A stretch of 64,000 nucleotides of DNA. It comes from Gammaproteobacteria bacterium. Lineage in GTDB: Bacteria > Pseudomonadota > Gammaproteobacteria > JAJPIJ01. Positions 8,218-48,451 of this stretch are shown here, piece by piece; positions within the stretch are counted from its first letter, which is position 1, and every line of letters starts with the position of its first letter. Both the position numbers and the translations under genes were made by a program. The notes under the pieces were generated by a model. That model was not told the DNA's origin. It was given only the letters and a program-made list of their open reading frames with translations, and ran no database searches. The stretch lies in NCBI GenBank assembly GCA_022071965.1, contig JAJVIQ010000006.1, forward strand, positions 2,351 through 66,350, written 5' to 3'.

Positions 8218-8247
8218 TCCGCCACGCGCGCCGAGGCGCGCCGTGGA

Positions 8248-8610: not shown

Positions 8611-8685
8611 GTCTCGTCTCCTGCTGCCGGGCCCGATGGCTTGCTATACTCGCCGCCCGCACTTGCGGTCGCAAGCCACGCGCGC

Positions 8686-9798
8686 ATGACTGCCTATCAG
8701 GGACAACCCGGTTTCCACCACGACGCGCGCCGCTGCCTGGGCGTACTGCTCACCAATCTCGGCACGCCGGATGAGCCCACGCCGAGGGCGCTGCGCCGGT
8801 ACCTCGCGGAGTTTCTTGCCGATCGGCGCGTCATCGAAACACCCCGAATCCTGTGGCTGCCGATCCTGCACGGCATCATCCTCAACATCCGCCCGGCGAA
8901 GTCGGCACACGCCTATCGGCAGATCTGGACTGAGGCGGGCTCGCCGCTGCTCGCCATCTCTCGCCGGCAGGCCGCCGCGCTACAGCAATCACTGCAGGCG
9001 CGCCTTCCCGGGCCGGTGCGAGTCGCGCTCGGCATGCGTTACGGCAATCCGCCGATACGCACCGCGATGGAGGAACTGCGCGAGGCCGGCGCGCGACACC
9101 TGCTCGTGCTGCCGCTGTATCCGCAATACTGCGCGGCCACGACCGCCTCGACGGTGGATGCCGTGAGCGCGGTGCTGAGGACCTGGCGTTGGGTGCCGGA
9201 GTTGCGCTTCGTCACGAGCTACCATGACGACAACCTCTACATAGACGCGCTGAAGCGATCCGTGGAGTCGCACTGGGCGGTTCATGGGCGCGCCGAACGG
9301 CTGCTGCTCTCGTTTCACGGCATACCGCGAAACTACATGCTGGCCGGCGATCCCTATCATTGCCAGTGTCGGAAGACCGCGCGGCTGCTCTGCGAGGCCC
9401 TGGGGCTGGGCGAGGACGAATGCCTGGTCACGTTCCAGTCACGGGTCGGGCCCGCGCAATGGCTGCAGCCGTACACGGACGTCACCCTGGCCGCGCTGCC
9501 CGCCCGCGGTGTGAGATCCCTGGACGTGCTCTGTCCGGGGTTCTCCGCCGATTGTCTGGAGACGCTCGAGGAGATCGCCATGCGCGGCCGCGACACCTTC
9601 CTGCGGGCCGGAGGCGAACGATACAACTACATTCCAGCACTCAACGATGATCCCCGGCATATCGAAACGCTGTCGGAGCTGGCGCTGCGGCATGCTGCCG
9701 GCTGGCCCGGGGCGAGCGGGAGGTGGGATGCCGCCCTGGACGATCGGGAGCGCGCCGCGACGCTGGCGCGCGCGCTGGCGCAGGGCGCCGAGCGCTGA
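8686..9798 (+). CDS. hemH: Ferrochelatase
   Basis: GVLLTNLGTPDEPTPRALRRYLAEFLADRRVIE...LLLSFHGIP...VTFQSRVGPAQWLQPYTD is colinear with HemH. The start is chosen at ATG 8686 (MTAYQGQ) within the longer ORF-track ORF. Confidence 0.85.
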   Translation: MTAYQGQPGFHHDARRCLGVLLTNLGTPDEPTPRALRRYLAEFLADRRVIETPRILWLPILHGIILNIRPAKSAHAYRQIWTEAGSPLLAISRRQAAALQQSLQARLPGPVRVALGMRYGNPPIRTAMEELREAGARHLLVLPLYPQYCAATTASTVDAVSAVLRTWRWVPELRFVTSYHDDNLYIDALKRSVESHWAVHGRAERLLLSFHGIPRNYMLAGDPYHCQCRKTARLLCEALGLGEDECLVTFQSRVGPAQWLQPYTDVTLAALPARGVRSLDVLCPGFSADCLETLEEIAMRGRDTFLRAGGERYNYIPALNDDPRHIETLSELALRHAAGWPGASGRWDAALDDRERAATLARALAQGAER

Positions 9799-9843
9799 GG
9801 GTCGCGAGGTCGATGGAGTGCCGCCTGCGCCTGCCGGCCGCCG

Positions 9844-11139: not shown

Positions 11140-11156
11140 CCCTCGGCACCCCGCAC

Positions 11157-30303: not shown

Positions 30304-30473
30304 CGAGCCCGACCTGCGGCTGACAGCGCCCGCCCTGCTCCTGTAGAATCCGCGGTCCTTTGCTGGTGCCCACGACCCTGGCGCCCGGCGGTTCCTGGAC
30401 TAGACTTAGGTCTCAACAGGGGCCCCAAATCGATTTTTAGACAGACACTTAAGATTAGACCCGCCAGAGACCG

Positions 30474-32339
<1,866 letters not shown>

Positions 32340-32366
32340 CGCCGCAAGATCGCTGTAGCCGCTCTC

Positions 32367-32410
32367 GCCCTGATTCATCCCCTCTCTCCCCTTGGGAGAG
32401 GGCCAGGGCG
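32367..32410 (+). terminator. Possible hairpin downstream of rpoD (GC-rich imperfect stem, no U-tract)
   Basis: gccctg...ccctctc-tccccttgg-gagaggg...cagggc forms nested inverted repeats between the rpoD stop and the tRNA. Confidence 0.3.
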
Positions 32411-32431
32411 AGGGGAAAGCAATCTCGCACT

Positions 32432-32507
32432 GGGCCTGTAGCACAACGGTTAGTGCAGGGGACTCATAATCCCTTGGTTGCAGGTTCGAATCCTGCCGGG
32501 CCCACCA
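32432..32507 (+). tRNA. ileX: tRNA with anticodon CAU; most likely tRNA-Ile2 (lysidine, ileX-like), otherwise elongator tRNA-Met
   Basis: GGGCCTGTAGCACAACGGTTAGTGCAGGGGACTCATAATCCCTTGGTTGCAGGTTCGAATCCTGCCGGGCCCACCA is a 76-nt cloverleaf. It has a 7-bp acceptor stem with G1:C72, so it is not an initiator. The anticodon loop is CUCAUAA, the T-loop GGTTCGAATCC, and CCA is encoded. It lies directly after rpoD, as ileX does in E. coli, and is near-identical to E. coli tRNA-Ile2 in the anticodon and T arms. Confidence 0.85.
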
Positions 32508-33694
32508 TCCCCATCAAGGGGTTGCGTTTCCACCAGCCGCTTAGGCATCGCCTCTGCTACCGATTTGCTACCGAACGGTACTGCCGGGGTTGCTCCGATG
32601 AGCTGATCGAGGCGCGCGGCGATGCCGTCGTTAACCTGCGGCAGCAGGTGGCCATAGATATCGAAAGTGATCTGAATCGACGAGTGACCGAGCAGCGCCT
32701 GGATGCGCTTAGGCTGCTCGTTATTGACGATCAGCAGGCTCGCGTAGGTGTGCCGCAGGTCATGGAATCGAATCCGCCGCAGGCCCGCGCGCCGCAACGC
32801 AGGATAAAACCCGTACTTGAGCAGGTTGCTAGGGCTCTCAGGCTTGCCATGGCTGTTCGGGAACACCAAGTCGCGCTCGCCGGTCGGGCAGGCAAGTTTC
32901 CACCGCCGAAGCTCGTTTACGAGGCTTGGAGGCAGGTCCACCTGTCGGCGGGAGTTACGGCTTTTCGGCTCGGTAAACCGCCCGTCGCTGTAACTCCGGC
33001 GTACGTGGACCTTGCCGGAATTCCAGTCAAAGTCACCCCATTGAAGCCCCAGCAGCTCCCCTTGGCGGAGGCCAGTGTAAACCGCGGTCATGACGATCGG
33101 GCGCCAGCGTGGATCGCAGCTATCCAGCAGCCTTCGGATCTCGTCAGGGGCCAGAATGTTCGAATCAATCAAGTCCGCCTGCGGATGTGATTCCTTCACC
33201 TTCGTCACCAAGAGCGCAGGGTTGGAGGCTATCCAGCGATGCTTGAGGGCGTAGTTCAGCATCATCGATAAGACAGTTAGGGCCTTATTGACCGTCCGAG
33301 GGCCGACAGGCTTCTCGGTAACCGTTCGAAATGTTCTCGTTTTCGCCGATATGTAGGCTCGCAGTTTTTCTACGTCGGCAACCGTGATGCCTCGGACCGG
33401 CCGGTCTTTGAAGTAGGGAGAAAGGTGAAGCCGGATTAGCCCCTCGTAGCTTTTCCGCGTCGATGCGCGCACGGCGACCTTCACATGCCCGGCCAGATAG
33501 GCCGACACGAGAGCGTCGAAGGTTATTTGTTCTCGCTTTGCCTGAAACTCTTCATGCCCGATTTCGCGAAGGCGCTGGGCGAGCAGCTGTTCGGCATCGT
33601 GTTTGTTGCCCTTGATCGTCTCCCAACGCCGCACGCCGTGCTGATCGCGGTAATCAAGGACCCACCGGCTCCGGCGCTTCCGTATGCAAGCCAT
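32450..33694 (-). CDS. int: Tyrosine-type site-specific recombinase (phage/island integrase); its 3' end reads into the tRNA gene
   Basis: N-terminal SAM-like domain, catalytic domain with R...(HDLRHTYAS)...Y (ITFDIYGHLLP). The last 17 codons (GPGRIRTCNQGIMSPLH) are antisense to the tRNA 3' half, typical of an attL/integrase junction. Confidence 0.9.
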   Translation of the reverse strand: MACIRKRRSRWVLDYRDQHGVRRWETIKGNKHDAEQLLAQRLREIGHEEFQAKREQITFDALVSAYLAGHVKVAVRASTRKSYEGLIRLHLSPYFKDRPVRGITVADVEKLRAYISAKTRTFRTVTEKPVGPRTVNKALTVLSMMLNYALKHRWIASNPALLVTKVKESHPQADLIDSNILAPDEIRRLLDSCDPRWRPIVMTAVYTGLRQGELLGLQWGDFDWNSGKVHVRRSYSDGRFTEPKSRNSRRQVDLPPSLVNELRRWKLACPTGERDLVFPNSHGKPESPSNLLKYGFYPALRRAGLRRIRFHDLRHTYASLLIVNNEQPKRIQALLGHSSIQITFDIYGHLLPQVNDGIAARLDQLIGATPAVPFGSKSVAEAMPKRLVETQPLDGDGGPGRIRTCNQGIMSPLH

Positions 33695-34473: not shown

Positions 34474-36573
34474 TTACCGGCCATGCTCTTCAACCATTAG
34501 TGGGACAAAGTGCGGGTGCAGATAGGTCTTACGCCCCCCCTGCTTGCACTGCTGTGGGAAGTCGGCAGGGAACACTCGGCCAGATGCTTCGAGTTCGGCC
34601 AAGGCGGCCCGTAGCTGTTCCCGCGGCATGATTTTTCGGGTCTCCAGGGAGCTTTTGGTGTGCCGATACCCTTGCTGAAGCTCCTCCACCAGGAATGCCA
34701 GAACCCTGTCAGCGCAGCGTTGCCTGACCATGGACGGCGGCTCCTTGAACTCGATGGCATACGTATAGGTGTACCCGCTGCGCCGCAGCCAAATGATCGG
34801 CTGGTTGGGACTCGTGTAACTCGAGGTACGTGCGAGTACCAAGATCTGGTCTCCACTCTTATACTCTAGCCCCGGCGGAGGCTGTCGGTTGGCCTTATCA
34901 TCGTGCGATTGGACCACTGCCACCATGCGCGCTCCATCCGGCAGCGCACTGCCGCCACGTGAGGTATAAATATCCATCGTTCTCTCGCGGGCATTGCTCT
35001 TGCCGGTATGTTGCACGACCCGCACGCAACAGCCGAGGGCCGAAACAATGCGGCGCGCGGCAAGGACAAGTGCCTGCTCGTTATCGTTTATGAAACGCTC
35101 CCCCGCACCAAAGCTGATCGCCGGGTCGAAGATCACCAGCATGGGGGGCTCCTTCTTGCACCGCTCTATAATCATGTCGGCAAGGCCAGTGAGCACGATG
35201 TTGTTTCCCTCGTCGAGTTCGGCGAGCCGGCACACCGTCCCCGATACGTCCCATATTAAGCTGCGGGCACGCACGGTCGCCTGCTGCTCTTCATCGAGTT
35301 CCAAGCCGGTCATAATCGCTCTTAACCGAGCGATCAATCGCTCGCGGGCATCTTCGGCGGTAACGATAAGCACTGCGCCGGGATTCATGACCTGCAGCCC
35401 GTAAAGCGGCCGACCGAGCGTGATATGTACGGCCTCATATAGGTACAGCGTGGTCTTTCCTGTCTTACCTGGTGCGACGAACAGCGATACATCGGCATGT
35501 AGGTACTCCTCCACGATGCAGGTTGGTGCGAGGGCTGCCGCTTGCGCCTCCTCCGCTGTCACACGGAGCTCCGTCAACTCCGGCATATCCGGGTAGGCTG
35601 GGGCTAAGCTCTTCGGGATGTAGCCAGATCGCTTGTCCCCACCGTTCGGTTTTGTCCAGCCGCGGCGTGTAGCTTCCGCGAATACAAAGCGCTGATCGAT
35701 GCTGTTCGACTGGAGACTGTCCCACACCCGCGCTGCATCTGCCGGGTCGAACTTCGTCGATGTCGCCGACCATTCCAACCACAGCCCACGCCCAACCTCG
35801 CCAATGGTCTTCAGCGCCATGCCTACCTTCACCCAAAGGTCGCGGTCATCGGCAGGTATGAAGTACAGGGCTGACCTGAGATCTCCAACGGCTGAAGGCG
35901 CAATGGGTTGGCCTTGACCAGTGTTGTTGCGTGCCCGCTCGGTTACCGTGACCGGCGGCAGTGCGCGCAAGATTTCGCCGAGCGAGTACGGCTGAGCGCC
36001 ACTTGTCGAGGCTATGCGGACCATCCACGGGTGCTCGCGATCCTTCATGTGGAAGAACCCTGGCAGGCGTAGGACCCGCGCCGGGTCCTTGGCGTTAGGA
36101 TCGCTGCCGTAATCGCTTACCAGCCTCGCCTGTACAGGCCGGTACTCCTCGACGGACATCCCCTCGACAAACAGGTATCGGTGAAATTTGCCTGCCGATG
36201 ATTCGACAACAACATGCGGCTCTAAAGGCAGCGGCTTTCCGTACCCATCATCCTCCTGAAATAAGCAACGAATCCGCGTCACGTTCTCATTGGAGCGGCC
36301 CGCGCCGTCCCCCTGCTGCACCATTACGTACACGCCTGCGCCCTGGCGATTCAGTTCGGCAAGAGTGCTTGCATGTTGTTCCAACGTGCCTTGAAGCACT
36401 CGTGCAAGACTGCGGTCTTTTCGGTTCTTGTCATCATCGAAGGTCTGAAAGGTGAAGGACTCCGTTGCCTCGTCGAGTAGTGTCAAGAATCGCGATGCCT
36501 GGACAGTGTCAGGGGCCAACGAGCTAGCCGTTGACGAGGATTGACCGGACGGTCCGTCTGGTACCGTGTTCAT
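34474..36573 (-). CDS. Island replication protein: bifunctional primase-polymerase (prim-pol/PriCT-like) N-domain fused to an AAA_25/RepA-like helicase domain
   Basis: N-terminal ...FQTFDDDKNRK...GAGVYVMVQQGDG...FQEDDGYGKPLPLEPHVVVESSAGKFHRYLFVEG...LPGFFHMKD is a prim-pol fold. C-terminal ...VAPGKTGKTTLYLYEAVHITLG...LIVTAEDARE...VVQHTGKS has RecA-like Walker A and B motifs. The start ATG 36573 overlaps the AlpA stop (ATGA). Confidence 0.75.
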   Translation of the reverse strand: MNTVPDGPSGQSSSTASSLAPDTVQASRFLTLLDEATESFTFQTFDDDKNRKDRSLARVLQGTLEQHASTLAELNRQGAGVYVMVQQGDGAGRSNENVTRIRCLFQEDDGYGKPLPLEPHVVVESSAGKFHRYLFVEGMSVEEYRPVQARLVSDYGSDPNAKDPARVLRLPGFFHMKDREHPWMVRIASTSGAQPYSLGEILRALPPVTVTERARNNTGQGQPIAPSAVGDLRSALYFIPADDRDLWVKVGMALKTIGEVGRGLWLEWSATSTKFDPADAARVWDSLQSNSIDQRFVFAEATRRGWTKPNGGDKRSGYIPKSLAPAYPDMPELTELRVTAEEAQAAALAPTCIVEEYLHADVSLFVAPGKTGKTTLYLYEAVHITLGRPLYGLQVMNPGAVLIVTAEDARERLIARLRAIMTGLELDEEQQATVRARSLIWDVSGTVCRLAELDEGNNIVLTGLADMIIERCKKEPPMLVIFDPAISFGAGERFINDNEQALVLAARRIVSALGCCVRVVQHTGKSNARERTMDIYTSRGGSALPDGARMVAVVQSHDDKANRQPPPGLEYKSGDQILVLARTSSYTSPNQPIIWLRRSGYTYTYAIEFKEPPSMVRQRCADRVLAFLVEELQQGYRHTKSSLETRKIMPREQLRAALAELEASGRVFPADFPQQCKQGGRKTYLHPHFVPLMVEEHGR

Positions 36574-36800
36574 TCTTGCCCGGTACACTCGGGGGTGACG
36601 CGGTATTGCTCCATCCATTCGATTAGATCGCGTCGTATGTACCGGATGGTATGGTTTGAAAGGCGCAAGAACGGCGGCCCGCAGCGGCGGCTGCGCCATC
36701 CCTGTAAAGCGCGAACTGATAAGCCTAGGAGCCGTGCCGCTTGTTCTTCATTGAGCAGCTTATCGACCGATAAACCAGAGGAGGGGGTTACAACTGTCAT
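36570..36800 (-). CDS. alpA: AlpA-family phage/island transcriptional regulator (HTH)
   Basis: LLNEEQAARLLGLSVRALQGWRSRRCGPPFLRLSNHTIRYIRRDLIEWM is the canonical AlpA/Prophage CP4-57 regulator motif. Confidence 0.8.
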   Translation of the reverse strand: MTVVTPSSGLSVDKLLNEEQAARLLGLSVRALQGWRSRRCGPPFLRLSNHTIRYIRRDLIEWMEQYRVTPECTGQE

Positions 36801-37749: not shown

Positions 37750-40700
37750 TCAGAGGCTCTGAACAGAAAGTGCAGTCGCGAGTCTCAACGTCTGCGCAAG
37801 CTCGACCAGATGCTTGTGGTGCGTGAAGAACAACACCTGCGTCTTGGCGCTTAATTCGCTCAGCACTTCAAGGGTCGCCACGGCCCGTTCATCATCGAAT
37901 TGAACGAGAAGGTCGTCGACAATGACAGGGAACGGACCACGCCCCTGAATGTGCTGCTCGATGGCCGCGAGCCTCAGCGCGAGAAACAGTTGATCGCGCG
38001 TTCCCTGGCTCATCCCGGCGACAGGTACGCGTGCTGCGTTCGGACGTACACCTAGCAGTACCTGGCGATCGTCTTCGTAATCCACCGTCAGGCCGGAAAA
38101 ACTACCCAGGGTTATGCGCGCAAATACCTCGGCTGCACGATTCAAGAGCGGCCCTTGGTGCTGTTCCCGGTAGAGTTGTACCACCCGGTTGAGAAGCGAA
38201 ATTGCCAGCCGTGCCCGGGCATAGGTGCAGGCCTCCTTGGCGATGCGTGCTGCAATTGACCGTACAGCCTGCTGCGCTTCCGCGGCGGTTGTTCCTCCAT
38301 CGATTGCATCAAGGCGTTGTTTCGTGTTGAACACAACACCTTGCGCGGCTTCGACCTGGCGCTCCAGATCTTCGATCCCAGTTTCCGCATCCGCAATCTG
38401 GCGGGCAATGTCCTCAAGCGTCAAGCCGTCGGCTTCCTGTCGCACGCCTTCGACTGGCTGGGCGTTCTGCTGCACTAGTTGCTCGTCAATCTCGTGCAGG
38501 CGTTGTTGCAGACTCCGTTGCCGGATCGCCTGCGCTTCGATCTCGGGCAGTTGTTCCGCTGATTGGCACCCGGCTTGGCGAACCAGCTCGTTCAGCGCAT
38601 CCCGCGCCTGCGCAGCATCGACGCCCGCCTCGTTGATTGTCCGGGTCTCGTGTTCAATGTCGTTGGCAACTTGCTGGCGCATCGTGTCGGCACCGCGCGC
38701 CTCGGCCAGCGCAGCGTACAGTCGCTCGGCGACAGTATCCGGACTCCGCCCATCCGCGACTTCGGCAACGGCCCGGGCAACGTCGAAAAGCTTCGCCTCA
38801 AAGCCCGTTACGACAGACTCATGCTCCTTGGACTCCGAATCGCAACTGCTCAATTTCCCTAACGCGGCGGACAGCCGGGAAAACTGGTCCAGCCTCGTCC
38901 TAACTTCAGCGGGAAGCGCTTTCGCCGGCAGATGAAGGCCTTCGGTGACCTCGACCCACTTGACCTTCCACTCGGCAAGTTTCGCGGCTGTCTGACCTCG
39001 TTGCTTCTGCAGATCGCGCAGCTCGGCCATGCCCGCTTGAATCTGCTCGGAAACCGAATCGCGGTCGGCCCTTGCCTGTCGGGCGGCATTGATAGCCTTT
39101 TGCGCTCGCGTAACCGCACCTGCGGCAGATTCGTCGGTGGTCGAGGCAGCCAGTCCGCATGCCTTTAGCGCCGTATCGAGCAAGTTGCGGGCTCGGGCGA
39201 TATCGCCGACGACCAAGGTCCGCTCTGTTCGCAGGCGCTCCACCTCCCCGTATCTCTCGACCAGTCGCTGGTGTCGGGCTAGCCATTCCCTCAAGGCGGC
39301 TGGTGAAATATCGGAGCGACGAAGCGGCGCGACGAGAACCTCCCACCGGTGCTGCAGGCCCTGACGCCTGTCGGCTAGCAGATCCCGTCGTTCCTCGTTG
39401 CGCTGCAGCTCGGCCTGCATGTCGGCAATTCGCTGGCGTGTTCCCTCCAGGTTCGTGGCGCGCTCGGTATCCGCCCGGAGCAGGTCGGCCAGACGGTCGG
39501 CTTCCCGGATCGCCGCTTCGAGCGCGGCTGCAAGTGCATACGGAGGCTGATTTCGCAGTTCCGTCGAGGCCGGCGGGGGAACGCCATCAATATATCTGCG
39601 GCGCAAGTCAGTCCACTTTGTGTCGCGCTCGGTGCGCGCCGTGGCAACTTCCGCTTGCGTGACCACCTCGCCGGTGGCCGCCAGTACATTGAGTTCGCTG
39701 CGGCGTTCCTCTAGATCGTGGGTGAGTGTTGCTTCCCTCTCCGCCACTAGACGCTCCTCTTGCGCGAGCGTGGCGAACTCGTTCTCGAATGTCCCTGCCA
39801 TTTCAGTCAGTGGGACTGTTAGCACCACGAGTTCCGAAAGCGAACCCGACCACAATGCCGCGGCCTCACGTTGCAGCCTCCCGTCCTCGTCGGCGATGTC
39901 GCGTTCAAGCTTTCGCCTGCGATTCTCGAGCTCGGCCACGCTGATAACATCCGCAAGGGAAGTCTCCAACTCTTCGACCTGTGCGGACTCAGGCAGCGTG
40001 GTAAGGCGTTCCTTCAGCCGCTCGATCGCCGCTTCCTTCGTGCGGACCTGTGCGTCAAACTGCTCATCACGATCAGTTAAGCGCCTATGCTCGTCAATGA
40101 GGGACTGCACACGGGCGATCAGCGTTTCCGGCGGCAACAGCTTGGAAGCCTGGGCGACCTCACAAGGCGATCCGATCTCCGCAAGCAGCTTCCGGATAGT
40201 CTCCGACAATTCAGCACGCTCTCGAACCAGTCGCGGCAGGGACTCTCGGGCCGAGCGATAACGGTCTATCGCATGAAACACCCCCTCGATAACGCTCGCC
40301 TGCTCCAGCACGCCCTCACGGACGACCAGAGCCGCGGCGTCGGCTTTGAGCTGTGCCAACCGAGACTCGGCTACGCGCTTCGTTTCCTCGGCCCTGCGCA
40401 TACGCTCTAGGGCAGCCACGCGCAGCTGCGCAACCTCGGCTGGCAAGGGGCGAATGTGCGCAAGACCTTCTGCTTCCTTTTGCTTGGCCGCGCGTTCAGC
40501 GAGCAAGGGCAGGTTGGCGCGGATACGCTGTAAACGCTGCTGCTCGGTTCGCTTGCCCTTGAGCGCCTCACGCAGCTGCGCGTACATCAATTCGGCCTGA
40601 CGGTGTTCGCGCTTCGCCACTTCCCATTCAGAAGTACGAACCGTCGCGTCTCGGAGGACCCGCCTCTGCTCCTCGAACTCCTTCAACGCGTGGTTCAGGC

Positions 40701-41268
40701 GCCCGGTCGAACCCCGTGGCTTGAACGTGGCTGCTGCTTCCTCGTCAAGGTCTGCAATGACGGTACGCAGGCTTGCGAGGCCGGCAGCCGCTTGAAACAA
40801 GCTGCGTCCTACCTCTCCTTCGCCGCGCAGCAATTCCTGGCCTCCAGCGACCAGCCCGGTCAGGTCCAAGCCGAAGAGATTCGTGTAGAGGGCTAAATCG
40901 AGTCCACCAACCAAATTAGCCGCCGTGCTGTCCGACAATGGCCGTTCCGTGATTTCGGCACCGGTGGTCTCATCAATGGCAAACAGGGTCGCCCTGCGAG
41001 CCTTGCGCCGCATTGCCGATAAGCGATTTCCGTCTGCAAGCAGCAGCGTCGCGCCCACGCGCAGCGCGTTGTAGTCGTGCAGAAATGCATCCCCGGTCCG
41101 CTCGGGTATGCCGAACAGAAAGCCGGTGACCGCGCGTAGGGTCGTCGACTTGCCGGCCTCGTTGGGTCCGAAGATCACATGAAAATTTTTGCCAGAGTCC
41201 GTTGGGAGCTCGATAATCCGGTCCCGGAAGGGACCGAACGCCTTCAGGTACAGGCGCACGAACATCAC
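37750..41268 (-). CDS. SbcC/Rad50-like ATPase (AAA_23/YhaN-like), 1172 aa with a very long coiled coil
   Basis: N-terminal Walker A FGPNEAGKSTTL and about 900 aa of heptad-like Glu/Arg/Leu-rich coiled coil. C-terminal ABC signature and Walker B/D-loop ...GMSQGTRDQLFLALRLAAIE...PVIVDDLLVQFDDERAVATLEVL. ATGA-coupled to the upstream nuclease gene. Confidence 0.8.
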   Translation of the reverse strand: MMFVRLYLKAFGPFRDRIIELPTDSGKNFHVIFGPNEAGKSTTLRAVTGFLFGIPERTGDAFLHDYNALRVGATLLLADGNRLSAMRRKARRATLFAIDETTGAEITERPLSDSTAANLVGGLDLALYTNLFGLDLTGLVAGGQELLRGEGEVGRSLFQAAAGLASLRTVIADLDEEAAATFKPRGSTGRLNHALKEFEEQRRVLRDATVRTSEWEVAKREHRQAELMYAQLREALKGKRTEQQRLQRIRANLPLLAERAAKQKEAEGLAHIRPLPAEVAQLRVAALERMRRAEETKRVAESRLAQLKADAAALVVREGVLEQASVIEGVFHAIDRYRSARESLPRLVRERAELSETIRKLLAEIGSPCEVAQASKLLPPETLIARVQSLIDEHRRLTDRDEQFDAQVRTKEAAIERLKERLTTLPESAQVEELETSLADVISVAELENRRRKLERDIADEDGRLQREAAALWSGSLSELVVLTVPLTEMAGTFENEFATLAQEERLVAEREATLTHDLEERRSELNVLAATGEVVTQAEVATARTERDTKWTDLRRRYIDGVPPPASTELRNQPPYALAAALEAAIREADRLADLLRADTERATNLEGTRQRIADMQAELQRNEERRDLLADRRQGLQHRWEVLVAPLRRSDISPAALREWLARHQRLVERYGEVERLRTERTLVVGDIARARNLLDTALKACGLAASTTDESAAGAVTRAQKAINAARQARADRDSVSEQIQAGMAELRDLQKQRGQTAAKLAEWKVKWVEVTEGLHLPAKALPAEVRTRLDQFSRLSAALGKLSSCDSESKEHESVVTGFEAKLFDVARAVAEVADGRSPDTVAERLYAALAEARGADTMRQQVANDIEHETRTINEAGVDAAQARDALNELVRQAGCQSAEQLPEIEAQAIRQRSLQQRLHEIDEQLVQQNAQPVEGVRQEADGLTLEDIARQIADAETGIEDLERQVEAAQGVVFNTKQRLDAIDGGTTAAEAQQAVRSIAARIAKEACTYARARLAISLLNRVVQLYREQHQGPLLNRAAEVFARITLGSFSGLTVDYEDDRQVLLGVRPNAARVPVAGMSQGTRDQLFLALRLAAIEQHIQGRGPFPVIVDDLLVQFDDERAVATLEVLSELSAKTQVLFFTHHKHLVELAQTLRLATALSVQSL

Positions 41269-42524
41269 GTAGCACCCCCGCCTCCGGCAAGGCGAGCCAG
41301 CAACTCGCCTTCTGCCGCGCCCAAGAGATCGCGCAGAACATCGAGAGCATCGAGCCGCAACAACTCATCCTGGTTCAGATCGGCCGGAAGCTTCTGCTTC
41401 AGTTCCTTCAGGGCATCGTTGGCAAACGAGGTGAGCTGTACCCCATCTTGCGCCAGCGCCTTGAGCTCCCTTACGAGAAGCGCGACTGGATCATCGCCAG
41501 CGGCGAGTCGATCAATCTCGATCGGTGGGCGGACACGGAGATCGACTTTCTCCAGCCAGGCGTTGCCCCCCGACGCGTCTAGTGCGATGGCGCGAAGCTG
41601 TTCAGCCATGACTTCCGGTCGTGCGGATACTTCGCGATGCACAGCGCCCGCGCCATGCACGCGAATGCGCAACCCGAGGATTCGTCCCTCTGTGTGAGCA
41701 AGCCTGGTCCTCACGTCGATTGCGACCCGGTCGAGAAGCGCGTCAAGGTCCGGCATCCCAGCCACGTCGATGACCAACTCAGACCAGCGCAAGATATCAA
41801 GTGCAACTGGCTCCGTGGTGACGCTGCCATCGTCGACAGTGACCAGTTCGCAGCCCTTTGCACCCTGCTCCCTGATGTGCCGGCCCTGGCTGTTGCCGGG
41901 ATACACCACCCACGGGTCGCGCGAGACGATCTCCCGGGCGTGAACATGCCCGAGCGCCCAGTAGTCGTAACCCTTCGAGCGCAAGACATGCTCCGTCGTT
42001 GGCGCGTAGTTATCGTGTCCAGGCCTGCCAGTTAGTGAGGTATGAAGGACACCGAGATTAAAGTAGCCGTGTACCGCCTGCGGATACCCGGCTGCAAGGT
42101 CATCGAGAACCGCAGCCGTTGCAAAGCTTTGCCCGTGGACGGCTAGGCCGAGGTTTTCGTCCGTAAATGTCGTTGGCGCCTTGTCAGGGAACAGGAAGAC
42201 GTTCTTTGGCAAGGGGAGCGACCGTGTCAGCTTGCTCGCGGCGTCGTGGTTTCCGCGAAGCACATAGACCGAGATACCGGATTCACCGAGCTGCGCCATC
42301 CCCTTGGCGAAGAACAGGCCCGTATTGAAGTCGGGCCAGTCGCCGTCGTAGAGATCTCCCGCGATGACGACAAAGTCCACGCGCTCGCGCAGCGCATGCT
42401 GGACCATGTTCTCGAATGCACGCCGGGTTGCCCCCCGCACCTCGTCCACGGGTGCGCCCTCATAGCGCTCCAGTCCCCGGAGCGGGCTATCAAGATGGAT
42501 GTCCGCGCAATGAAGGAACCGCAT
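41265..42524 (-). CDS. SbcD/Mre11-like metallophosphoesterase (DNA repair exonuclease family)
   Basis: MRFLHCADIHLDSPL (motif I), VIAGDLYD (II), RGNHD (III), ...GHVH (V) are the calcineurin-like phosphoesterase motifs in Mre11/SbcD order, and the C-terminal domain is present. Confidence 0.8.
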   Translation of the reverse strand: MRFLHCADIHLDSPLRGLERYEGAPVDEVRGATRRAFENMVQHALRERVDFVVIAGDLYDGDWPDFNTGLFFAKGMAQLGESGISVYVLRGNHDAASKLTRSLPLPKNVFLFPDKAPTTFTDENLGLAVHGQSFATAAVLDDLAAGYPQAVHGYFNLGVLHTSLTGRPGHDNYAPTTEHVLRSKGYDYWALGHVHAREIVSRDPWVVYPGNSQGRHIREQGAKGCELVTVDDGSVTTEPVALDILRWSELVIDVAGMPDLDALLDRVAIDVRTRLAHTEGRILGLRIRVHGAGAVHREVSARPEVMAEQLRAIALDASGGNAWLEKVDLRVRPPIEIDRLAAGDDPVALLVRELKALAQDGVQLTSFANDALKELKQKLPADLNQDELLRLDALDVLRDLLGAAEGELLARLAGGGGAT

Positions 42525-43494: not shown

Positions 43495-44283
43495 GTGAGT
43501 GTCGCATTGAAATTTCTTGTCGGCATTCTTGTGCTGTGGCTCGTGCTTGGGGGGCTGGGGACCATGTTTGGCTGGTTAAGAGCGCTCTTTGAGCGTAGCC
43601 CTACGCCGCCACAAGACCGGTCGCCACGACCCGAGGTCCGCACCAAGCCTTCGGCGCCGAACACCTATCGGCCATCACCCCGCGCAGCCACTAGGCCGAT
43701 TAGGTTTACGAGCGGGGGCGCAAATCGCACTGGGGCATCTGCCCGCAATGCCGCTGATCTGTCAGGCATCAATGACGCTTTCACCGGAAGGCGCCTCGAC
43801 CTAAGCCAACCCGTGTACGAGTGCGTCGGCTGCCACGTATTCTACCAGGCCGCAAGCGTGGAGGTCCTGCGCGAGGCCAACAGCTCTCGGTGCATGGTCT
43901 GCGGTAGCACGCAGATTGCTGAGCATGGGAAGGGGAAGGGGCAGGAGCGCGCGGAAGCGCGCAACTATACGCCGAATGCGGTCGCCCTCAATAATTACAG
44001 GGAGCACATCGGACAGGTCATTACTTTCACCGGCTATGTCTATGATGTGAAGCAGAGCCGTCGAGGCCTGGATTACGCGGTAATGTTTGAGCGGGCATCC
44101 TGGACAAAAGGTCTCAAAATGGTTGCATTTAGGGGTGGCGTGCGAAAGTTGGGTGGTGCCGCCACACTAAAAAGCTACGCTGGGAAGACGCTGACGATTC
44201 GTGGACTCCTGATTCAGGACCCAATTTTCGGGCCGGAAATCATTGTTGATGACCCAGCGATGGTCATCCGAGTCGACTCATGA
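43495..44283 (+). CDS. Membrane-anchored zinc-ribbon protein with a C-terminal beta-rich domain, first gene of the Ubl-conjugation operon
   Basis: GTG start, one N-terminal TM helix (FLVGILVLWLVLGGLGTMFGWL), a Pro/Arg-rich linker, then CVGCHVF...CMVCGS (a CxxC x21 CxxC ribbon), then a roughly 110-aa domain. The stop overlaps the next ATG (ATGA). Confidence 0.6.
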   Translation: MSVALKFLVGILVLWLVLGGLGTMFGWLRALFERSPTPPQDRSPRPEVRTKPSAPNTYRPSPRAATRPIRFTSGGANRTGASARNAADLSGINDAFTGRRLDLSQPVYECVGCHVFYQAASVEVLREANSSRCMVCGSTQIAEHGKGKGQERAEARNYTPNAVALNNYREHIGQVITFTGYVYDVKQSRRGLDYAVMFERASWTKGLKMVAFRGGVRKLGGAATLKSYAGKTLTIRGLLIQDPIFGPEIIVDDPAMVIRVDS

Positions 44284-44534
44284 AGTGGCGCAACATTCCA
44301 AGAAATTACCGTGACCGGCTTGCCGAACTCACGGAGCAGTTATCCCGCGACCCTTACGCCGTTCTAGGGATCACAGAGGAGGTGACTGACGAAGAGGTTA
44401 AGCAAGCGTACCGTAAACTCGTCAGCGCTTACCATCCGGATAAGCAGGGCGTTTTCCTGCGAGTACATGCGCAGGAGGTCATCAAGATCGTGAATGCGGC
44501 CTATGAGCGCATTTGCGCGATGAGAAACCTATGA
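44280..44534 (+). CDS. J-domain (DnaJ-like) small protein
   Basis: DPYAVLGITEEVTDEEVKQAYRKLVSAYHPDK has the invariant HPD tripeptide and helix II/III spacing of the J domain. 84 aa. ATGA-coupled on both sides. Confidence 0.8.
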   Translation: MKWRNIPRNYRDRLAELTEQLSRDPYAVLGITEEVTDEEVKQAYRKLVSAYHPDKQGVFLRVHAQEVIKIVNAAYERICAMRNL

Positions 44535-45667
44535 CAGATCGCTACCTCCGCCACAACCTCATTGACTGGTTCGATCAGGATCTGCTCAAGACGCTCAGTG
44601 CACTTGTCGTCGGTGCTGGGGCTGTCGGTAACGAGGTTATAAAGAACCTGTGTTTGCTCGGCATAGGCACAATTCGCATCGTCGATTTCGACACAATAGA
44701 AGTACACAATCTTACTCGGAGCGTACTGTTCACGGAGGCGGACGTCGGCAAGAACAAGGCACTCGCGGCGGCGGAAGCAGCAGCAAAGCTGGACCCCTAT
44801 TGCAGCATTGAGGCTATTTCTGGAGATTTCTGGGACAAGATCAGCTTTGCAAAATTGCAGGAGGCATCTATTGTCTTTTGCTGCGTCGATAATTTCGAAG
44901 CCAGATTCCGCATCAATCGCATGTGCAGTCTACTTGGCGTCGATCTGATCAACACCGGAATTGATTCGCGCAATGTCTTGGCCGAGATCTTCCCGTTCGC
45001 GCGCGATCCCGACTCAGCGTGCTTCGAATGTAACCTGCCGCCCTCGACGTATCAGCGAGTGGCCGAGCGTTACTCGTGCGGTTGGCTTCAAAAGGTCTCC
45101 TTTGAGGCACGGAAAATTCCAACGACCGCCATCACCGCGAGCTTTGCGGGCGCCATGGCGACCTCGCTCTTCTTGTATTCTTTCCGAGAAGATTCGGAGC
45201 CCGGCGCACGCCGACTTTTTTACGACACTGTCACTGGCAGTGCGTCCAAGGTGAACCTGCCAATGAACCCGGCCTGCGTGTGTTGCAGTACCCAGTCGGC
45301 ACCACGACTTCTGGTTCGTGCACAGCGCGTCATCGGACAAGACCTGCCGTGGCTCAAATCATTGCCCTTAGATGTCACCGTGACGGTAAGCGATCCAATC
45401 TTGGTTACTTGGGAGATGCCGAACTGCGCGGTATGCTCGTCCACCGCCCCCGAGTGCGTTCTAGACCTCGCCTCGAACTATAATGAGTCCCACACGATAT
45501 GCACTAAATGCGGGCTTAAGCAGCGACTAGCGGTGATTCGTGACCAGTTCTCGCTTGGCGAACTTGTCGAGAAGTTTAGTGGGCGGCCGTTACCCGGGAA
45601 GTTCTTGTGCTTTGAGGGTGATGGCACACAGATTGTCGTTGAGTTGCAGGACGGAGGCTCTGAATGA
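44531..45667 (+). CDS. E1-like ubiquitin-activating enzyme (ThiF/MoeB/UBA fold), BilD-like
   Basis: LLKTLSALVVGAGAVGNEVIKNLCLLGIGTIRIVDFDTIEVHNLTRSVLFTEADVGKNKA is the nucleotide-binding Rossmann motif of E1 enzymes. There are downstream Cys pairs (CFEC...CVCC). Start at ATG 44531, overlapping the J-domain stop. Confidence 0.85.
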   Translation: MTDRYLRHNLIDWFDQDLLKTLSALVVGAGAVGNEVIKNLCLLGIGTIRIVDFDTIEVHNLTRSVLFTEADVGKNKALAAAEAAAKLDPYCSIEAISGDFWDKISFAKLQEASIVFCCVDNFEARFRINRMCSLLGVDLINTGIDSRNVLAEIFPFARDPDSACFECNLPPSTYQRVAERYSCGWLQKVSFEARKIPTTAITASFAGAMATSLFLYSFREDSEPGARRLFYDTVTGSASKVNLPMNPACVCCSTQSAPRLLVRAQRVIGQDLPWLKSLPLDVTVTVSDPILVTWEMPNCAVCSSTAPECVLDLASNYNESHTICTKCGLKQRLAVIRDQFSLGELVEKFSGRPLPGKFLCFEGDGTQIVVELQDGGSE

Positions 45668-45921
45668 CTGAAATTAATATCGTAATCCGCACTGCGGACC
45701 AGACCCGCAAGGCAGAAGTGACGCTACCAGGCTCCCACACCGGCGCCGATGTAATCCAAGCCGCCGTGGACAACTGGTCGTTACCACGAGATACGGACTA
45801 TTCCCTCGTCAACACACGCTCCGCCCAGCCTGTACAGCCCGCCAATAGCTTGGAAAAGCAAGGCGTACAGAACGGTGATGTGCTAGAGGTTCAGCCCGTA
45901 CTCGTGGCTGGGCTATCGTAG
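45664..45921 (+). CDS. Ubiquitin-like beta-grasp protein (BilA-like), probably made as a precursor ending ...VAG-LS
   Basis: 85 aa. INIVIRTADQTRKAEVTLPGSHTGADVIQAAV...GDVLEVQPVLVAGLS has a beta-grasp-like pattern. There is a Gly two residues before the C-terminus. ATGA-coupled to E1. Confidence 0.65.
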   Translation: MTEINIVIRTADQTRKAEVTLPGSHTGADVIQAAVDNWSLPRDTDYSLVNTRSAQPVQPANSLEKQGVQNGDVLEVQPVLVAGLS

Positions 45922-45927
45922 GCCTCC

Positions 45928-46581
45928 ATGACCGCGTTCTTTGCTCGCCGCGATGAGGATATCGCTAAGCTCAAGGAGCTCGAGCGGCAGACGGGCGGCC
46001 GTATCAAGGTCACCCGCGTCTCCGGTAATCCCATTTCCCAGATTGATCTGAAACTAAAGGTTCGTACTGCTGGCGACGATCGCTTTCCGTCCAAGGTTCT
46101 GAATGAGGTTGATGCAACGATCCAGCTTGGAGCACGATACCCGTTCGAGGAGCCTTCCGTATCGCTGCCCACAAAAGTGTTCAACCCTAATGTCTACACC
46201 AGCGGACGCGTCTGTCTAGGATCGAAGTGGCTTTCTACGGAATATCTTGACCTTCTCGCGCAACGCCTGTTCAAGATCTTGGCATTCGACGAGTCCATCG
46301 TAAACACGGCATCCGCAGCAAATGGAGAGGCTGCCCGATGGTACATCCGCGCTAAGTCAGCGCGCCCCGCGGACTTCCCAACTGACTCGTTGCCGGTCGC
46401 ATCTTCGAAGTCGCCCTCCGCCGTGAGGTGGACGGACAAACCCGCGCCGCAGCCGGTGTCGTCTGTTGCCCGAGTTATCGTCACTTGCCCGAAGTGTCAG
46501 ACAAAGCTGCGACTACCGGCAGGCAACAGCGGCAGTGTCCGCTGTCCAGCCTGCAAACATTCTTTTTCCGCAACCACATGA
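45928..46581 (+). CDS. E2-like ubiquitin-conjugating enzyme (UBC fold, BilB-like) with a C-terminal zinc ribbon
   Basis: ...ARYPFEEPSVSLPTKVFNPNVYTSGRVCLGSKW matches the E2 HPN-x6-CL catalytic loop with the catalytic Cys. C-terminal CPKC...CPAC. Confidence 0.75.
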   Translation: MTAFFARRDEDIAKLKELERQTGGRIKVTRVSGNPISQIDLKLKVRTAGDDRFPSKVLNEVDATIQLGARYPFEEPSVSLPTKVFNPNVYTSGRVCLGSKWLSTEYLDLLAQRLFKILAFDESIVNTASAANGEAARWYIRAKSARPADFPTDSLPVASSKSPSAVRWTDKPAPQPVSSVARVIVTCPKCQTKLRLPAGNSGSVRCPACKHSFSATT

Positions 46582-47168
46582 TTGAGTGGAAGACCGTAGA
46601 TCCTGATTCGACTCCGCGCGATCTCGCCACTATTTTGGCATCACTTTCATTTGTCGACGTACTTGCGATAACTACAGCATTGTCACGCGGGGCGCTGTTA
46701 CTATTTGCCGCCGATGCTCGTGAGACAATAGTGCAGCACGTTTCGGCGCGACGCGAGGAAAGTGGAGGTTTGCTCCTGGGCGTGGCAGTAACCCCCGGCA
46801 GAATCGGCCAGACGGTTGCCAATCCGATCGTCTGCGTGACTGATGCAGTTCCCTCGCGAGAATATCAAGGAACATCCGTCTCGCTTCACATGGACGCGTC
46901 TGTATGGACATCCGCCATCCCCCAAAGGGAGACCGGTCTAATGGTCGTGGGATGGTTCCACAGTCACCCGAATCTCGGCGCCTTTTTCAGTGGGACAGAT
47001 CGTTCAACGCAGCGAAAGTTTTTTGGCCATGAGTACTCACTGGGCTACGTGATAGATCCAATACGCGACGAACACGCGTACTTCCTCGGCGCAGATTCAG
47101 AGGAGATAGGAAGTGACACCGTGGTCGATTACCCGAGCAAGGCGACCCTGCCAGCATGCCTCCGATGA
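46578..47168 (+). CDS. JAB/JAMM (MPN+) metalloprotease, deubiquitinase-like (BilC-like)
   Basis: EESGGLLLG (Glu), GWFHSHPNLGAFFSGTD is the JAMM motif HxHx7Sx2D. The start ATG overlaps the E2 stop (ATGA). Confidence 0.85.
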   Translation: MIEWKTVDPDSTPRDLATILASLSFVDVLAITTALSRGALLLFAADARETIVQHVSARREESGGLLLGVAVTPGRIGQTVANPIVCVTDAVPSREYQGTSVSLHMDASVWTSAIPQRETGLMVVGWFHSHPNLGAFFSGTDRSTQRKFFGHEYSLGYVIDPIRDEHAYFLGADSEEIGSDTVVDYPSKATLPACLR

Positions 47169-47306: not shown

Positions 47307-48137
47307 TTACCCAATGTCGTTCTGCGTTTGTTCGTTGCCTCGTTGCCGGTGCTTGGCGGCAAACTCCGCCGGGGTCATGTATCCCAGCGCACTGTGGGGA
47401 CGTTGCTCGTTGTAATCCCGTCGCCATTCCGCCACGGTGCTGCGTGCCTGCGCCAAGCTGGTGAACCAGTGTTCATTCAGGTACTCGTCGCGAAACTTGC
47501 CGTTAAACGACTCGCTGTAGGCGTTCTGGATCGGCTTGCCTGGCTCGATCATTTTCAGCTCCACCCCATGACGATACGCCCACTGGTCCAGCGCCTTGGT
47601 CGTGAACTCCGGGCCGTGATCGGTGCGGATCGCCTTCGGTCGGCCCCGGAATCGCACGGCTTGATCCAGCACACGGGAGACGTAGAGCCCTGCGATCCCG
47701 TGATCGAGCACGATGTCCACCGCCTCCTTGCTGAAGTCGTCAACAATCGTCAGGCACTTCAAGCGCCGGCCGTTGCTCAGCGCATCGGAAACTAAATCCA
47801 TCGACCAGACTTCGTTGACCGCCGTAGGCAACTTCAGCGCTTCCCGCTCCATCGCCACCCCCTGCCGGCGACGTCGTCGCCGCACCGCCAGCCGCTCCGC
47901 CCGATACAACCGGTATACCCGTTTGTGATTCGCCTTCACTCCCTCGCGCCGCAGCAGCACGTGAATCCGACGGTAGCCGAATCGCCGGCGCGCCTGCGCC
48001 AACTTCACGATCCGACCCCTCAGCCGCTGCTCCTCCTCACAGTGCCGCGCCTGGTAGTGCAGCACCGTGCGCGAGATGCCCATCAGCCCACAGGCACGCC
48101 GCTCCGAGATCTTTACCTTCGCCCGCATCGCCTCCAC
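47307..48137 (-). CDS. IS3-family transposase OrfB (DDE integrase core)
   Basis: ...WSMDLVSD...[10 protein letters not shown]...[17 protein letters not shown] is a DDE catalytic core with the rve domain. Confidence 0.9.
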
Positions 48138-48160
48138 GGCCTCCCGGCGCGCCTGCGGGC

Positions 48161-48451
48161 TTACCGCTTTCCCCGCGCCACCACCTTCAGCGCCTCGATA
48201 TCCAGCATCGCCTCGGCCAGCAGCTTCTTAAGCCTCCCGTTCTCCGACTCCAACTCCCGCAACCGACGGGCCTCCGACACCTCCATCCCGCCGTATTTGC
48301 TGCGCCACAGGTAGAACGCGCCGTCGGAAAACCCATGCTTGCGGCACAGCTCCTTGACCGATACCCCAGCCTCCGCTTCCTTGACCGATACCCCAGCCTC
48401 CCCTTCCTTCAGAAGACCAATGATCTGCTCTTCGGTGAACCGCCTTTTCAT
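48161..48451 (-). CDS. IS3-family transposase OrfA (HTH), with an in-frame 7-aa tandem duplication
   Basis: [55 protein letters not shown]... leucine zipper. EAGVSVK is duplicated, coming from a 21-bp tandem repeat at about 48353-48394. Confidence 0.85.

Follow-up and report, generated by a model that had tools for sequence, protein, structure and literature searches.

We analysed a cassette of six genes at positions 43495–47168 on the plus strand of a 64,000-nucleotide (nt) stretch of contig JAJVIQ010000006.1 (hereafter the window), which belongs to the Gammaproteobacteria bacterium assembly GCA_022071965.1. The cassette very probably encodes a functional cysteine-based module for conjugation of a ubiquitin-like protein (Ubl), distinct from the bacterial ISG15-like (Bil) systems. 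The predicted products are, in order, a membrane protein with a zinc module and an OB fold, a J-domain protein, an E1, the Ubl, an E2 and a JAMM peptidase of the JAB type. On balance we favor a wider reading, in which a thioester-type module resembling the archaeal and eukaryotic ones works together with accessory proteins at the inner membrane and with a link to Hsp70, and serves in biological conflict. The cassette is apparently an undescribed relative of the known bacterial anti-phage ubiquitin-like systems.

All six plus-strand open reading frames (ORFs) that had been called in an earlier reading of this DNA, made from the letters alone (the sequence-only reading), are present in the window, intact and closely packed (Table 1). 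Judging by their junctions, the six genes are predicted to form one translationally coupled operon: ATGA overlaps join the membrane protein gene to the J gene, the J gene to the E1 gene, the E1 gene to the Ubl gene and the E2 gene to the JAMM gene, and a 6-nt spacer (45922–45927) separates the Ubl and E2 genes. The sequence-only reading had every junction as an ATGA or a 7-nt overlap, which is right for four of them but not for the fifth, and no 7-nt overlap occurs anywhere. For the membrane protein, we preferred the GTG start over the shorter NCBI gene call because homologues retain the transmembrane helix that it adds; for the E1, the alternative TTG start at 44513 in the ORF list is less likely than the ATG at 44531. 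The scan for promoter-like and terminator-like sites on the plus strand inside the cassette gave none, with counts at the level of shuffled sequence that make it uninformative. Neither the cassette nor the region upstream of its first gene has an Rfam match, and the 970 bp preceding the first gene are without a Pfam-recognizable ORF. The source assembly lists this region under locus tags NFCOHLIN_01069–01073. Chance occurrence of the cassette is far excluded, as the same order of six products detectable by hidden Markov models (HMMs) recurs in dozens of unrelated genomes.

The products were scanned with the HMMs of Pfam, PADLOC-DB v2.0.0, PHROG and NCBIfam 20.0, with a match limit of E ≤ 0.1 for PADLOC. 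Together with conserved motifs and structure models, these scans support the full E1, Ubl, E2 and JAMM cascade that had been read from the sequence. The E1 carries one ThiF domain (residues 11–249; Pfam ThiF, 4.6e-44). Its best match in the PDB is the active adenylation domain of eukaryotic UBA1 (1.8e-24), followed by SAE2 and then by MoeB (4.5e-18), with much weaker matches to BubCD (1.3e-8) and Cap2 (2e-7). The motifs G.GA.GNE, DFD.IE.HNLTR, CVD..AR and R.SCG are invariant in 13 homologues, all of which retain the nucleotide-binding loop, the HNLTR Arg, the CVD..AR Asp, two CxxC pairs and the R.SCG Cys of the crossover region. The crossover loop thus brings together the CxxC...CxxC zinc ligands and the invariant SCG, whose Cys is the candidate catalytic residue. 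These motifs would provide the ATP-binding GxGxxG, the Arg finger, the Asp and the catalytic Cys of an active E1. The C-terminal domain of the E1, about 125 residues long, is specific to the family and has a Cys4 cluster in some members only. A profile search of the PDB with this domain returned no sequence match, and its identification as a UFD was dropped.

The Ubl reaches the YukD-like Pfam model at 1.5e-5 and 26.1 bits, just below the cut-off of 27, and its sequence profile finds only non-significant SAMP2 and PF1061 matches in the PDB; its fold was assigned from structure prediction. The AlphaFold2 (AF2) model, built with 34 homologues, has a predicted local distance difference test score (pLDDT) of 92.9 and a beta-beta-alpha-beta-beta-beta topology, and its best Foldseek matches are the C-domain of ISG15, SUMO, ubiquitin and Caldiarchaeum ubiquitin, with template modeling (TM) scores of 0.77–0.85 and a probability of 1.00 for ISG15, SUMO and ubiquitin. 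AF2 and Foldseek therefore agree on the beta-grasp fold on which the sequence-only reading depended. The protein terminates in an invariant LVAG followed here by a two-residue tail, LS; LVAG is the very end of the protein in 71 of 120 homologues, and in the others 1–10 further residues come after it.

In the E2 a canonical UBC core (Pfam UQ_con, 7.1e-9 and 35.8 bits against a gathering cut-off of 27) contains NPN and the predicted catalytic Cys98; next come a linker in which (R/K)WTD is conserved and a C-terminal MJ0042-type zinc ribbon (residues 184–215, nt 46477–46572; Pfam Zn_ribbon_4, 5.2e-7; NCBIfam MJ0042_CXXC above its cut-off). The best PDB matches are UBE2A/RAD6, in alignments that cover HPN and the Cys, and the catalytic loop noticed earlier, FNPNVYTSGRVCL, was found in this protein. 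PN..SG..C.G.KW is invariant among the E2 homologues; across the family HPN occurs in 56 loci and NPN in 18, the latter marking the sub-clade of this cassette. Against IBR, the E2 tail gave weak matches (1.4e-3 and 0.011), both under the cut-off. It should be noted that a set of proteins of 138–142 residues (P0091, P0094, P0098–P0100, P0105, P0118, P0119, P0132, P0138 and P0175) join a Ubl without LVAG to the WTDK linker and zinc ribbon of the E2, which resembles an in-frame loss of the UBC core.

The last product matches Pfam Prok-JAB (1.7e-10) and JAB (1.7e-6) and has the JAMM/MPN+ motif E...HxHx7Sx2D in the form EESGG...HSHPNLGAFFSGTD, with invariant residues; its second part had also been picked out in the sequence-only reading. 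The best solved relative is the Caldiarchaeum Rpn11-like enzyme 6fjv (3.4e-9), then Rpn11/PSMD14 and CSN5, and the protein is predicted to be the pro-Ubl trimming and deconjugating enzyme. No RING was detected among the cassette products. By these comparisons, all four core proteins appear nearest to the archaeal and eukaryotic ubiquitin machinery.

The membrane protein has no family in Pfam, PADLOC, PHROG or NCBIfam, although its homologues amount to 238 representatives at 50% identity. An N-terminal transmembrane helix (residues 2–32) leads into a Pro/Ser-rich linker, disordered and with TYRP conserved; beyond it lie the motif GINDAFTG, a Cys4 module for one zinc (C110, C113, C133 and C136) and, at the C-terminus, an OB fold; the AF2 model (pLDDT 83.6, above 90 in the folded part) reproduces the helix, the disordered linker, the small zinc module and the OB barrel. 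The earlier description of a single-pass membrane protein with a CxxC/CxxC ribbon and a beta-rich C-terminal domain is supported, and refined in that the latter domain is an OB fold. In the model the barrel is five-stranded and resembles the anticodon-binding domains of aminoacyl-tRNA synthetases and RPA-type domains, members of the nucleic-acid-binding OB superfamily, and it is strongly basic (mean isoelectric point, pI, 10.3). Long relatives of the protein with N-terminal extensions yielded no informative Pfam domain.

The zinc module keeps seven residues (D, C, C, Y, S, C, C) invariant across architectures A, B and C, which are described below. Its profile finds the BPTF PHD finger in the PDB at E 0.0097, and hhalign gives 90% probability, which is suggestive only of a PHD-like half in which the second cross-brace zinc site is kept and the first is lost. 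A RING identity was tried and rejected, the hhalign probability against the RNF4 RING being only 0.85%. The charges flanking the transmembrane helix, and the binding of the zinc by cysteines, suggest that the N-terminus is outside and the C-terminus inside, and we regard the protein as a putative bitopic inner-membrane accessory protein.

The J protein is minimal, consisting of a J domain (Pfam DnaJ, 1.7e-13; 50.9 bits, cut-off 27.8) and an N-terminal extension, MKW..., that is conserved, without a client-binding domain. HPD is invariant in six of six aligned homologues, the best PDB matches are the J domains of Sec63 and DnaJ, and NCBIfam offers only J-domain-level matches, DjlA the best of them, all far under their cut-offs.

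Homologue searches gave 38 clusters for the E2, 33 clusters at 90% identity for the membrane protein and 769 clusters for the Ubl, and twelve homologue look-ups, made through one of these three proteins, led to 13 loci. All 13 agree with the window in gene content and gene order (type A below), with the small genes uncalled in a few; the carriers are Dyella, Immundisolibacter, Luteibacter, Sphingobium, Mesorhizobium, Pseudomonas nunensis, Syntrophotalea, Minwuia, an Omnitrophota metagenome-assembled genome (MAG) and metagenomic contigs. Carriers that can be cultivated are Dyella nitratireducens DHG59, Luteibacter anthropi CCUG 25036, P. nunensis and Vibrio bivalvicida 605. In a distribution scan with one genome for each of 185,579 species, the Ubl, as part of the E1–Ubl–E2–JAB core, was found in 89 (about 0.05%), scattered across several bacterial phyla and classes. 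The cassette is present on 1 of 2.9 million IMG/VR viral contigs.

The best 80 of the 89 species loci were fetched and, with the viral contig, classified with HMMs made from the six proteins. The E1–Ubl–E2–JAB order is constant in all loci, and four architectures surround it. Type A (23 loci in Gamma-, Alpha- and Betaproteobacteria, Nitrospirales, Desulfobacterales and Omnitrophota) has the full membrane protein, with transmembrane helix, zinc module and OB fold, and the J gene. In type B (39 loci, mostly Betaproteobacteria with some Gammaproteobacteria MAGs) the membrane protein is a form of about 120 residues with the helix, linker and zinc module, without the OB fold, and there is no J gene. 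Type C (8 loci in Marinimicrobia and Rhodospirillaceae) runs J–E1–Ubl–E2–JAB and then a larger membrane protein with a signal peptide, a Cys-rich periplasmic part, a transmembrane helix and the same cytoplasmic zinc module, and type D (4 loci in Porticoccaceae) is the four-gene core alone. Outside these types, one locus has the full membrane protein and no J gene, and the others lie on truncated contigs.

It follows from this census that the membrane-tethered zinc module is a nearly universal accessory, that the OB fold is confined to type A, and that the J gene occurs in about 40% of the loci, only with the larger forms of the membrane protein. Clustering of 564 flanking ORFs revealed no further conserved neighbor gene or regulator, only lineage-local synteny, and because no other flanking gene is conserved we treat the cassette as the unit. 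Synteny at the level of lineages was seen among the type B loci in Steroidobacteraceae-like MAGs.

Of the 33 complete type A loci, one prophage among them, 32 have all six genes in this order, and the single exception is without the J gene. Within type A the J protein co-diverges with the E1, E2 and JAB proteins (r = 0.81–0.92 for pairwise identities). Both results agree with the proposal of the sequence-only reading that the J and membrane genes would be conserved together with E1, E2 and JAB, and they indicate that in this sub-family the membrane Cys4 protein and the J protein are, as far as conservation can tell, integral parts of the operon and not passengers. The exceptional locus (L044, 3–1220, in a Methylobacteriaceae MAG) has two tandem genes resembling that of the membrane protein 5′ of the E1 gene and is the sole type A-like locus without J.

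A short Trp motif was noticed in several of these proteins: MKWR at the N-terminus of the J protein (44280–44292), RWTDK in the E2 linker (46425–46439), MIEWK at the N-terminus of the JAMM peptidase (46578–46592) and LKWLS just ahead of the zinc module in the type C membrane proteins (near 9380 in locus L049). It may be a shared docking motif.

Among described systems, the ubiquitin operon of Caldiarchaeum and Asgard archaea is the closest parallel in both function and sequence. The Caldiarchaeum operon encodes ubiquitin, E1-like and E2-like proteins, a small RING finger protein and an Rpn11-like enzyme (Nunoura 2011 PMC3082918; Hennell James 2017 PMC5654768; Fuchs 2018 PMC6043591). It shares with the cassette its compactness, an E1 with a single adenylation domain, a canonical UBC E2 and a pro-ubiquitin whose short C-terminal tail is taken off by a JAMM peptidase of the Rpn11 kind, a step that is predicted for the cassette; CsRpn11 is the best solved match of our JAMM peptidase, and the Ubl model superposes on the Caldiarchaeum ubiquitin with a TM score of 0.80 at 23% identity. 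The cassette, in contrast, is bacterial and mobile, with a fixed E1–Ubl–E2–JAB order and no detected RING. It adds a J gene, a zinc ribbon at the end of the E2 and a PHD-like module for one zinc that is bound to the membrane and is joined to an OB fold in type A, whereas the archaeal operon has a RING E3 and neither membrane nor J components.

In 2011, Burroughs, Iyer and Aravind (Mol Biosyst 7:2261) reportedly described prokaryotic systems with an oxyanion-Asn E2, an E1 with a C-terminal E2-presenting domain (UFD) and YukD-like Ubls proposed to be conjugated. The near-threshold YukD match of the Ubl, the (H/N)PN of the E2 and the C-terminal extension of the E1 in the cassette are like these features. 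As far as the citing passages of PMC7159879 and PMC5654768 go, the 2011 work includes bacterial E1–E2–RING–JAB–Ubl operons and conjugatable YukD-like Ubls. The cassette differs from such operons in that no RING was found in it, and its four-gene E1–Ubl–E2–JAB core may already have been cataloged there.

Other systems are more distant. Bub (6E/DUF6527; Ye 2024 PMC11601596) and type II CBASS with Cap2 and Cap3 are likewise bacterial ubiquitination-like conjugation systems found in defense contexts. However, Bub uses Tyr/Ser oxyesters, a Ser-His protease and an E2 without Cys, whereas the cassette keeps the E1 and E2 Cys and a JAMM peptidase, and Cap2 is an E2–E1 fusion that conjugates the CD-NTase and not a Ubl. 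None of the operon classes 6a–6e of Iyer 2006 has the arrangement of the cassette, and DnaJ is not mentioned in that paper. CHIP (ubiquitination coupled to Hsp70 and J proteins), the membrane-tethered E2 and E3 enzymes of endoplasmic-reticulum-associated degradation (ERAD) and Escherichia coli DjlA are functional analogies only, in that they bring together a J domain, which recruits Hsp70, an E2 and an adaptor at a membrane; homology is limited to the J domain and the UBC fold, and the J protein of the cassette is soluble and minimal, with the anchor on a separate protein. In line with the earlier claim of novelty, our literature search, which did not cover Burroughs 2011, found no bacterial E1/E2/Ubl operon described as having a coupled gene for a J-domain protein or for a membrane zinc/OB protein.

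In the window, the dnaG–rpoD region (28534–32339) is followed by a tRNA-Met gene (32432–32507), and from about 30 kb to the end of the window the GC fraction falls from about 0.69 to 0.52–0.65; past rpoD and tRNA-Met it is 0.52–0.62. The tRNA-Met gene, the integrase and the drop in GC mark the left end of a large integrative island, in which the order of features 3′ of the tRNA is integrase, RepB-primase protein, AAA_27 pair, cassette, IS3 element, hydrolase, PDC-M66 pair and RHS gene (Table 1). A RepB-primase-type fusion beside an integrase is typical of satellite-like or integrative elements. The island context described in the sequence-only reading, namely an insertion sequence (IS), a kinase toxin and an RHS toxin next to the cassette, was confirmed in all three parts; the kinase is the HipA_2-like kinase of the PDC-M66 candidate pair. 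The AAA_27 ATPase and its phosphoesterase partner resemble SbcCD and may be a separate defense or repair module.

Table 1. Genes of the cassette, domains of the membrane protein and neighboring features of the island (positions in the window; aa, amino acids)
Feature	Position	Strand	Remarks
Membrane protein	43495–44283	+	GTG start, 262 aa
Zinc module of the membrane protein	43750–43914	+	about residues 86–140; predicted to be cytoplasmic and close to the membrane; PHD-finger-like signature
OB fold of the membrane protein	43942–44280	+	about residues 150–262; predicted nucleic-acid-binding type
J-domain protein	44280–44534	+	84 aa
E1	44531–45667	+	from ATG, 378 aa
Ubl	45664–45921	+	85 aa
E2	45928–46581	+	217 aa
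JAMM peptidase	46578–47168	+	from ATG, 196 aa
Tyrosine integrase	within 32432–33694	-	3′ of tRNA-Met
RepB-primase/PriCT_2/AAA_25 fusion	34474–36699	-	741 aa; adjoins the integrase
AAA_27/SMC-like ATPase and calcineurin-like phosphoesterase	37750–42524	-	1172 aa and 419 aa, overlapping; ATPase with weak PADLOC LmuB match (2e-12)
IS3-family element	47307–48451	-	HTH_Tnp_1 orfA and rve orfB; about 140 bp 3′ of the JAB stop
Alpha/beta hydrolase	between the IS3 element and the PDC-M66 pair		
PDC-M66 candidate (PADLOC)	51146–52785		HipA_2-like kinase and DUF3037, 4-nt overlap; A 3e-71, B 6.5e-96
RHS-repeat protein	53186–57670	-	1494 aa; RHS_repeat 2e-111, DUF6531
Gene without family	57667–58452		261 aa; overlaps and precedes the RHS gene

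An ORF of 721 residues (30279–32444, minus strand) runs antisense to rpoD (30474–32339, plus strand), has no family match and is almost certainly a spurious shadow ORF of high-GC DNA; such shadow ORFs are numerous in the first 30 kb of the window.

Elsewhere the cassette is found in comparable settings. In Luteibacter it likewise lies just downstream of rpoD, and this site may be a shared integration hot spot; in Mesorhizobium an integrase and a primase of the VapE type are its neighbors, placed as the integrase and the RepB-primase fusion are in the window. One locus is a prophage, in which the cassette is placed between terminase/portal genes, UmuD with a Y-family polymerase, a restriction-modification fusion and holin/endolysin genes. 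The Omnitrophota cassette adjoins terminase and ParB-methylase genes, one further locus lies amid IS elements, and in locus L005 the neighbors are STAND ATPase, GmrSD and PIN genes. In locus L010 the type A cassette (8001–11552) is directly downstream of a CapH/CapP-regulated Multi_ubiq/ThiF (6E/Bub-like) operon (3958–7889). The cassette is thus a horizontally mobile unit, carried by a tRNA-Met island here and by a prophage and other islands elsewhere.

Two observations concern individual loci of this set. In L010, two distinct ubiquitin-like systems adjoin each other, with helicase and nuclease genes around them. In L005, the gene of a 448-residue nSTAND1/AAA_16 ATPase (9244–10590) overlaps the end of the JAB gene, which suggests occasional recruitment of extra components.

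On the reading that we favor, the JAMM peptidase would remove the LS tail and expose Gly83 of the Ubl; the E1, probably as a homodimer, would adenylate Gly83, form the thioester and hand the Ubl to Cys98 of the E2. The zinc module of the membrane protein would dock the charged E2, the target or both at the inner membrane face, and it is the E3-like candidate because it is the sole part of the membrane protein common to all architectures. The OB fold would pick a nucleic acid or nucleoprotein, and the J protein may load the host DnaK on a nearby unfolded chain, either to present the target or keep hold of it or to regulate the enzymes; the JAMM peptidase could also undo the tag. The island, the integrase, the defense-like genes and the prophage cargo setting favor a role in conflict or defense, and conflict with phages or other invading DNA is the most likely role as judged from this context. 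That Ubl conjugation can work as an anti-phage principle is known from Bil (Millman 2022; Chambers 2023 PMC10557695; Hor 2024).

A more specific version of this role, speculative and in our estimate distinctly unlikely to hold in full, has the type A cassette stationed at the membrane, where it would both sense foreign DNA on its arrival and act against it. In phage ejection or conjugation, DNA that crosses the inner membrane, perhaps in single-stranded form, would be bound by the basic OB fold. DnaK would be loaded by the J protein on the unfolded pilot, ejection or relaxase protein that comes with this DNA, and the E2 docked by the zinc module would attach the Ubl to that protein, which would keep the invader from becoming established.

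Two alternatives concern the kind of machinery encoded. The sequence-only reading assigned the cassette to Bil, and a variant of this anti-phage family enlarged by two genes would share with BilABCD the four kinds of parts, encoded by separate genes of one operon in a defense-type island, and a short, removable tail beyond the conserved Gly of the Ubl, as in type II BilA; weak PADLOC matches to BilD (1.3e-8) and BilC (2e-3) point the same way. However, the PADLOC models of BilA (the 85-residue Ubl being the product in question) and BilB (the E2) have no match at all, and the E1 fits CBASS Cap2-type models (2.9e-21) better than BilD. Throughout PADLOC, the membrane, J and Ubl proteins are without a match, the E1 and JAB proteins have only generic CBASS/Bil domain-level matches, and the E2 has two irrelevant weak ones. 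Bil operons have a consistent Ubl–E2–deubiquitinase–E1 order, a pseudodimeric two-domain E1 (BilD) and a CEHH-type E2 (PMC10557695). In contrast, the window and all related loci have the order E1–Ubl–E2–JAB instead of bilA–B–C–D, an E1 of 378 residues with one adenylation domain instead of an inactive and an active one, the BilD model covering only its own positions 211–405, and a UQ_con E2 of the HPN/NPN type. The best solved relatives are UBA1, RAD6 and the Caldiarchaeum Rpn11 and not Bil proteins, and Bil is without the membrane and J-domain components that the cassette has. On the PADLOC scan and the published features, Bil membership was rejected, and an enlarged Bil variant is very unlikely. 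Even less credible is a sulfur-carrier or cofactor pathway of the ThiS/MoaD–ThiF/MoeB type without protein conjugation. The E1 does have domain-level ThiF and MoeB matches, and the Ubl profile touches SAMP2 and PF1061 weakly, but the ThiF and MoeB scores in NCBIfam are all far under their cut-offs, and the Ubl model is structurally nearer to ubiquitin, SUMO and ISG15. Moreover, the cassette has a JAMM peptidase and a UBC-type E2 with a predicted catalytic Cys, both of them invariant, and near the looked-up loci there is neither a rhodanese domain nor a gene for thiamine or molybdopterin.

Two further alternatives accept the cascade and differ as to its role. In one, the cassette would be a housekeeping or stress system for membrane protein quality control, similar to ERAD: misfolded proteins of the envelope or the membrane would be marked so that they are extracted or degraded, and the cassette would have no part in conflict with mobile elements. 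An anchor, a J domain and a Ubl cascade are a formal parallel to the E2/E3 enzymes of the endoplasmic reticulum membrane with Hsp70 and J proteins, some loci are found amid metabolic genes, and the type B synteny in Steroidobacteraceae-like MAGs suggests vertical inheritance. A housekeeping function is difficult to reconcile, however, with so rare and scattered a distribution and with the repeated location on integrative islands, in a prophage, by IS elements and by known or candidate defense genes, and a basic OB fold of the nucleic-acid class is ill-suited to a receptor for misfolded proteins; we consider this role unlikely. In the other, to which we likewise assign a low probability, the cassette would serve the mobile element that carries it, by superinfection exclusion on behalf of a prophage or island or by manipulating the host DnaK and host proteins during replication or transfer of the element. 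The accessory-region location in the prophage, the terminase and ParB-methylase neighbors in Omnitrophota and the islands with integrase and primase are consistent with such a service, as are the phage families with J-domain-like proteins that PHROGs include. Against it stand the single IMG/VR contig and the absence of the membrane protein from GenBank phages and PLSDB plasmids. This alternative also overlaps with defense, since excluding competitors protects the host as well.

Several results weigh against our favored reading of membrane-associated, Hsp70-linked conjugation in conflict. More than half of the wider family has no J gene, and J can therefore not be essential to the core chemistry; the earlier view of both extra genes as integral holds for type A. 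The membrane protein tracks the enzymes less tightly than J does (r = 0.5–0.6), the PHD-like assignment of its zinc module has borderline statistics with no RING similarity, and OB folds also have proteins and sugars as ligands. Three loci (L003, L007 and L011) lie amid ordinary metabolic genes with no obvious defense neighbors, and neither the plasmids of PLSDB nor the phages of GenBank gave a match to the membrane protein. No product of the cassette has a family-specific match to any PADLOC system, and no NCBIfam 20.0 model other than the MJ0042 zinc-finger domain exceeds its cut-off. Conjugation, target, membrane localization, DnaK dependence and a phage phenotype are all predictions from sequence and context.

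To our knowledge, three bacterial ubiquitination-like families have been characterized biochemically, namely type II CBASS, Bil and Bub, all of them with divergent enzymes. In the present family the E2 is a UBC of the HPN type, the adenylation domain is like that of UBA1, the peptidase is like Rpn11 and the Ubl folds like ubiquitin and ISG15; among bacterial proteins, these four core members come nearest in appearance to the machinery of archaea and eukaryotes. The family is mobile and small, and it is a candidate defense system without a name in PADLOC v2 and NCBIfam 20.0. It includes two features, a membrane-tethered adaptor and an Hsp70 co-chaperone, that are otherwise tied to ubiquitination only in eukaryotes. 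If the foreign-DNA sensor described above were true, it would be the first prokaryotic example of Hsp70-assisted ubiquitin-like tagging and a mechanistic parallel to chaperone-coupled ubiquitination in eukaryotes. If conjugation itself is true, the cassette would provide a tractable six-gene system for studying how substrates are chosen without a RING E3 and what a link to Hsp70 adds, with the natural architectures that have or lack the J gene and the OB fold as built-in controls.

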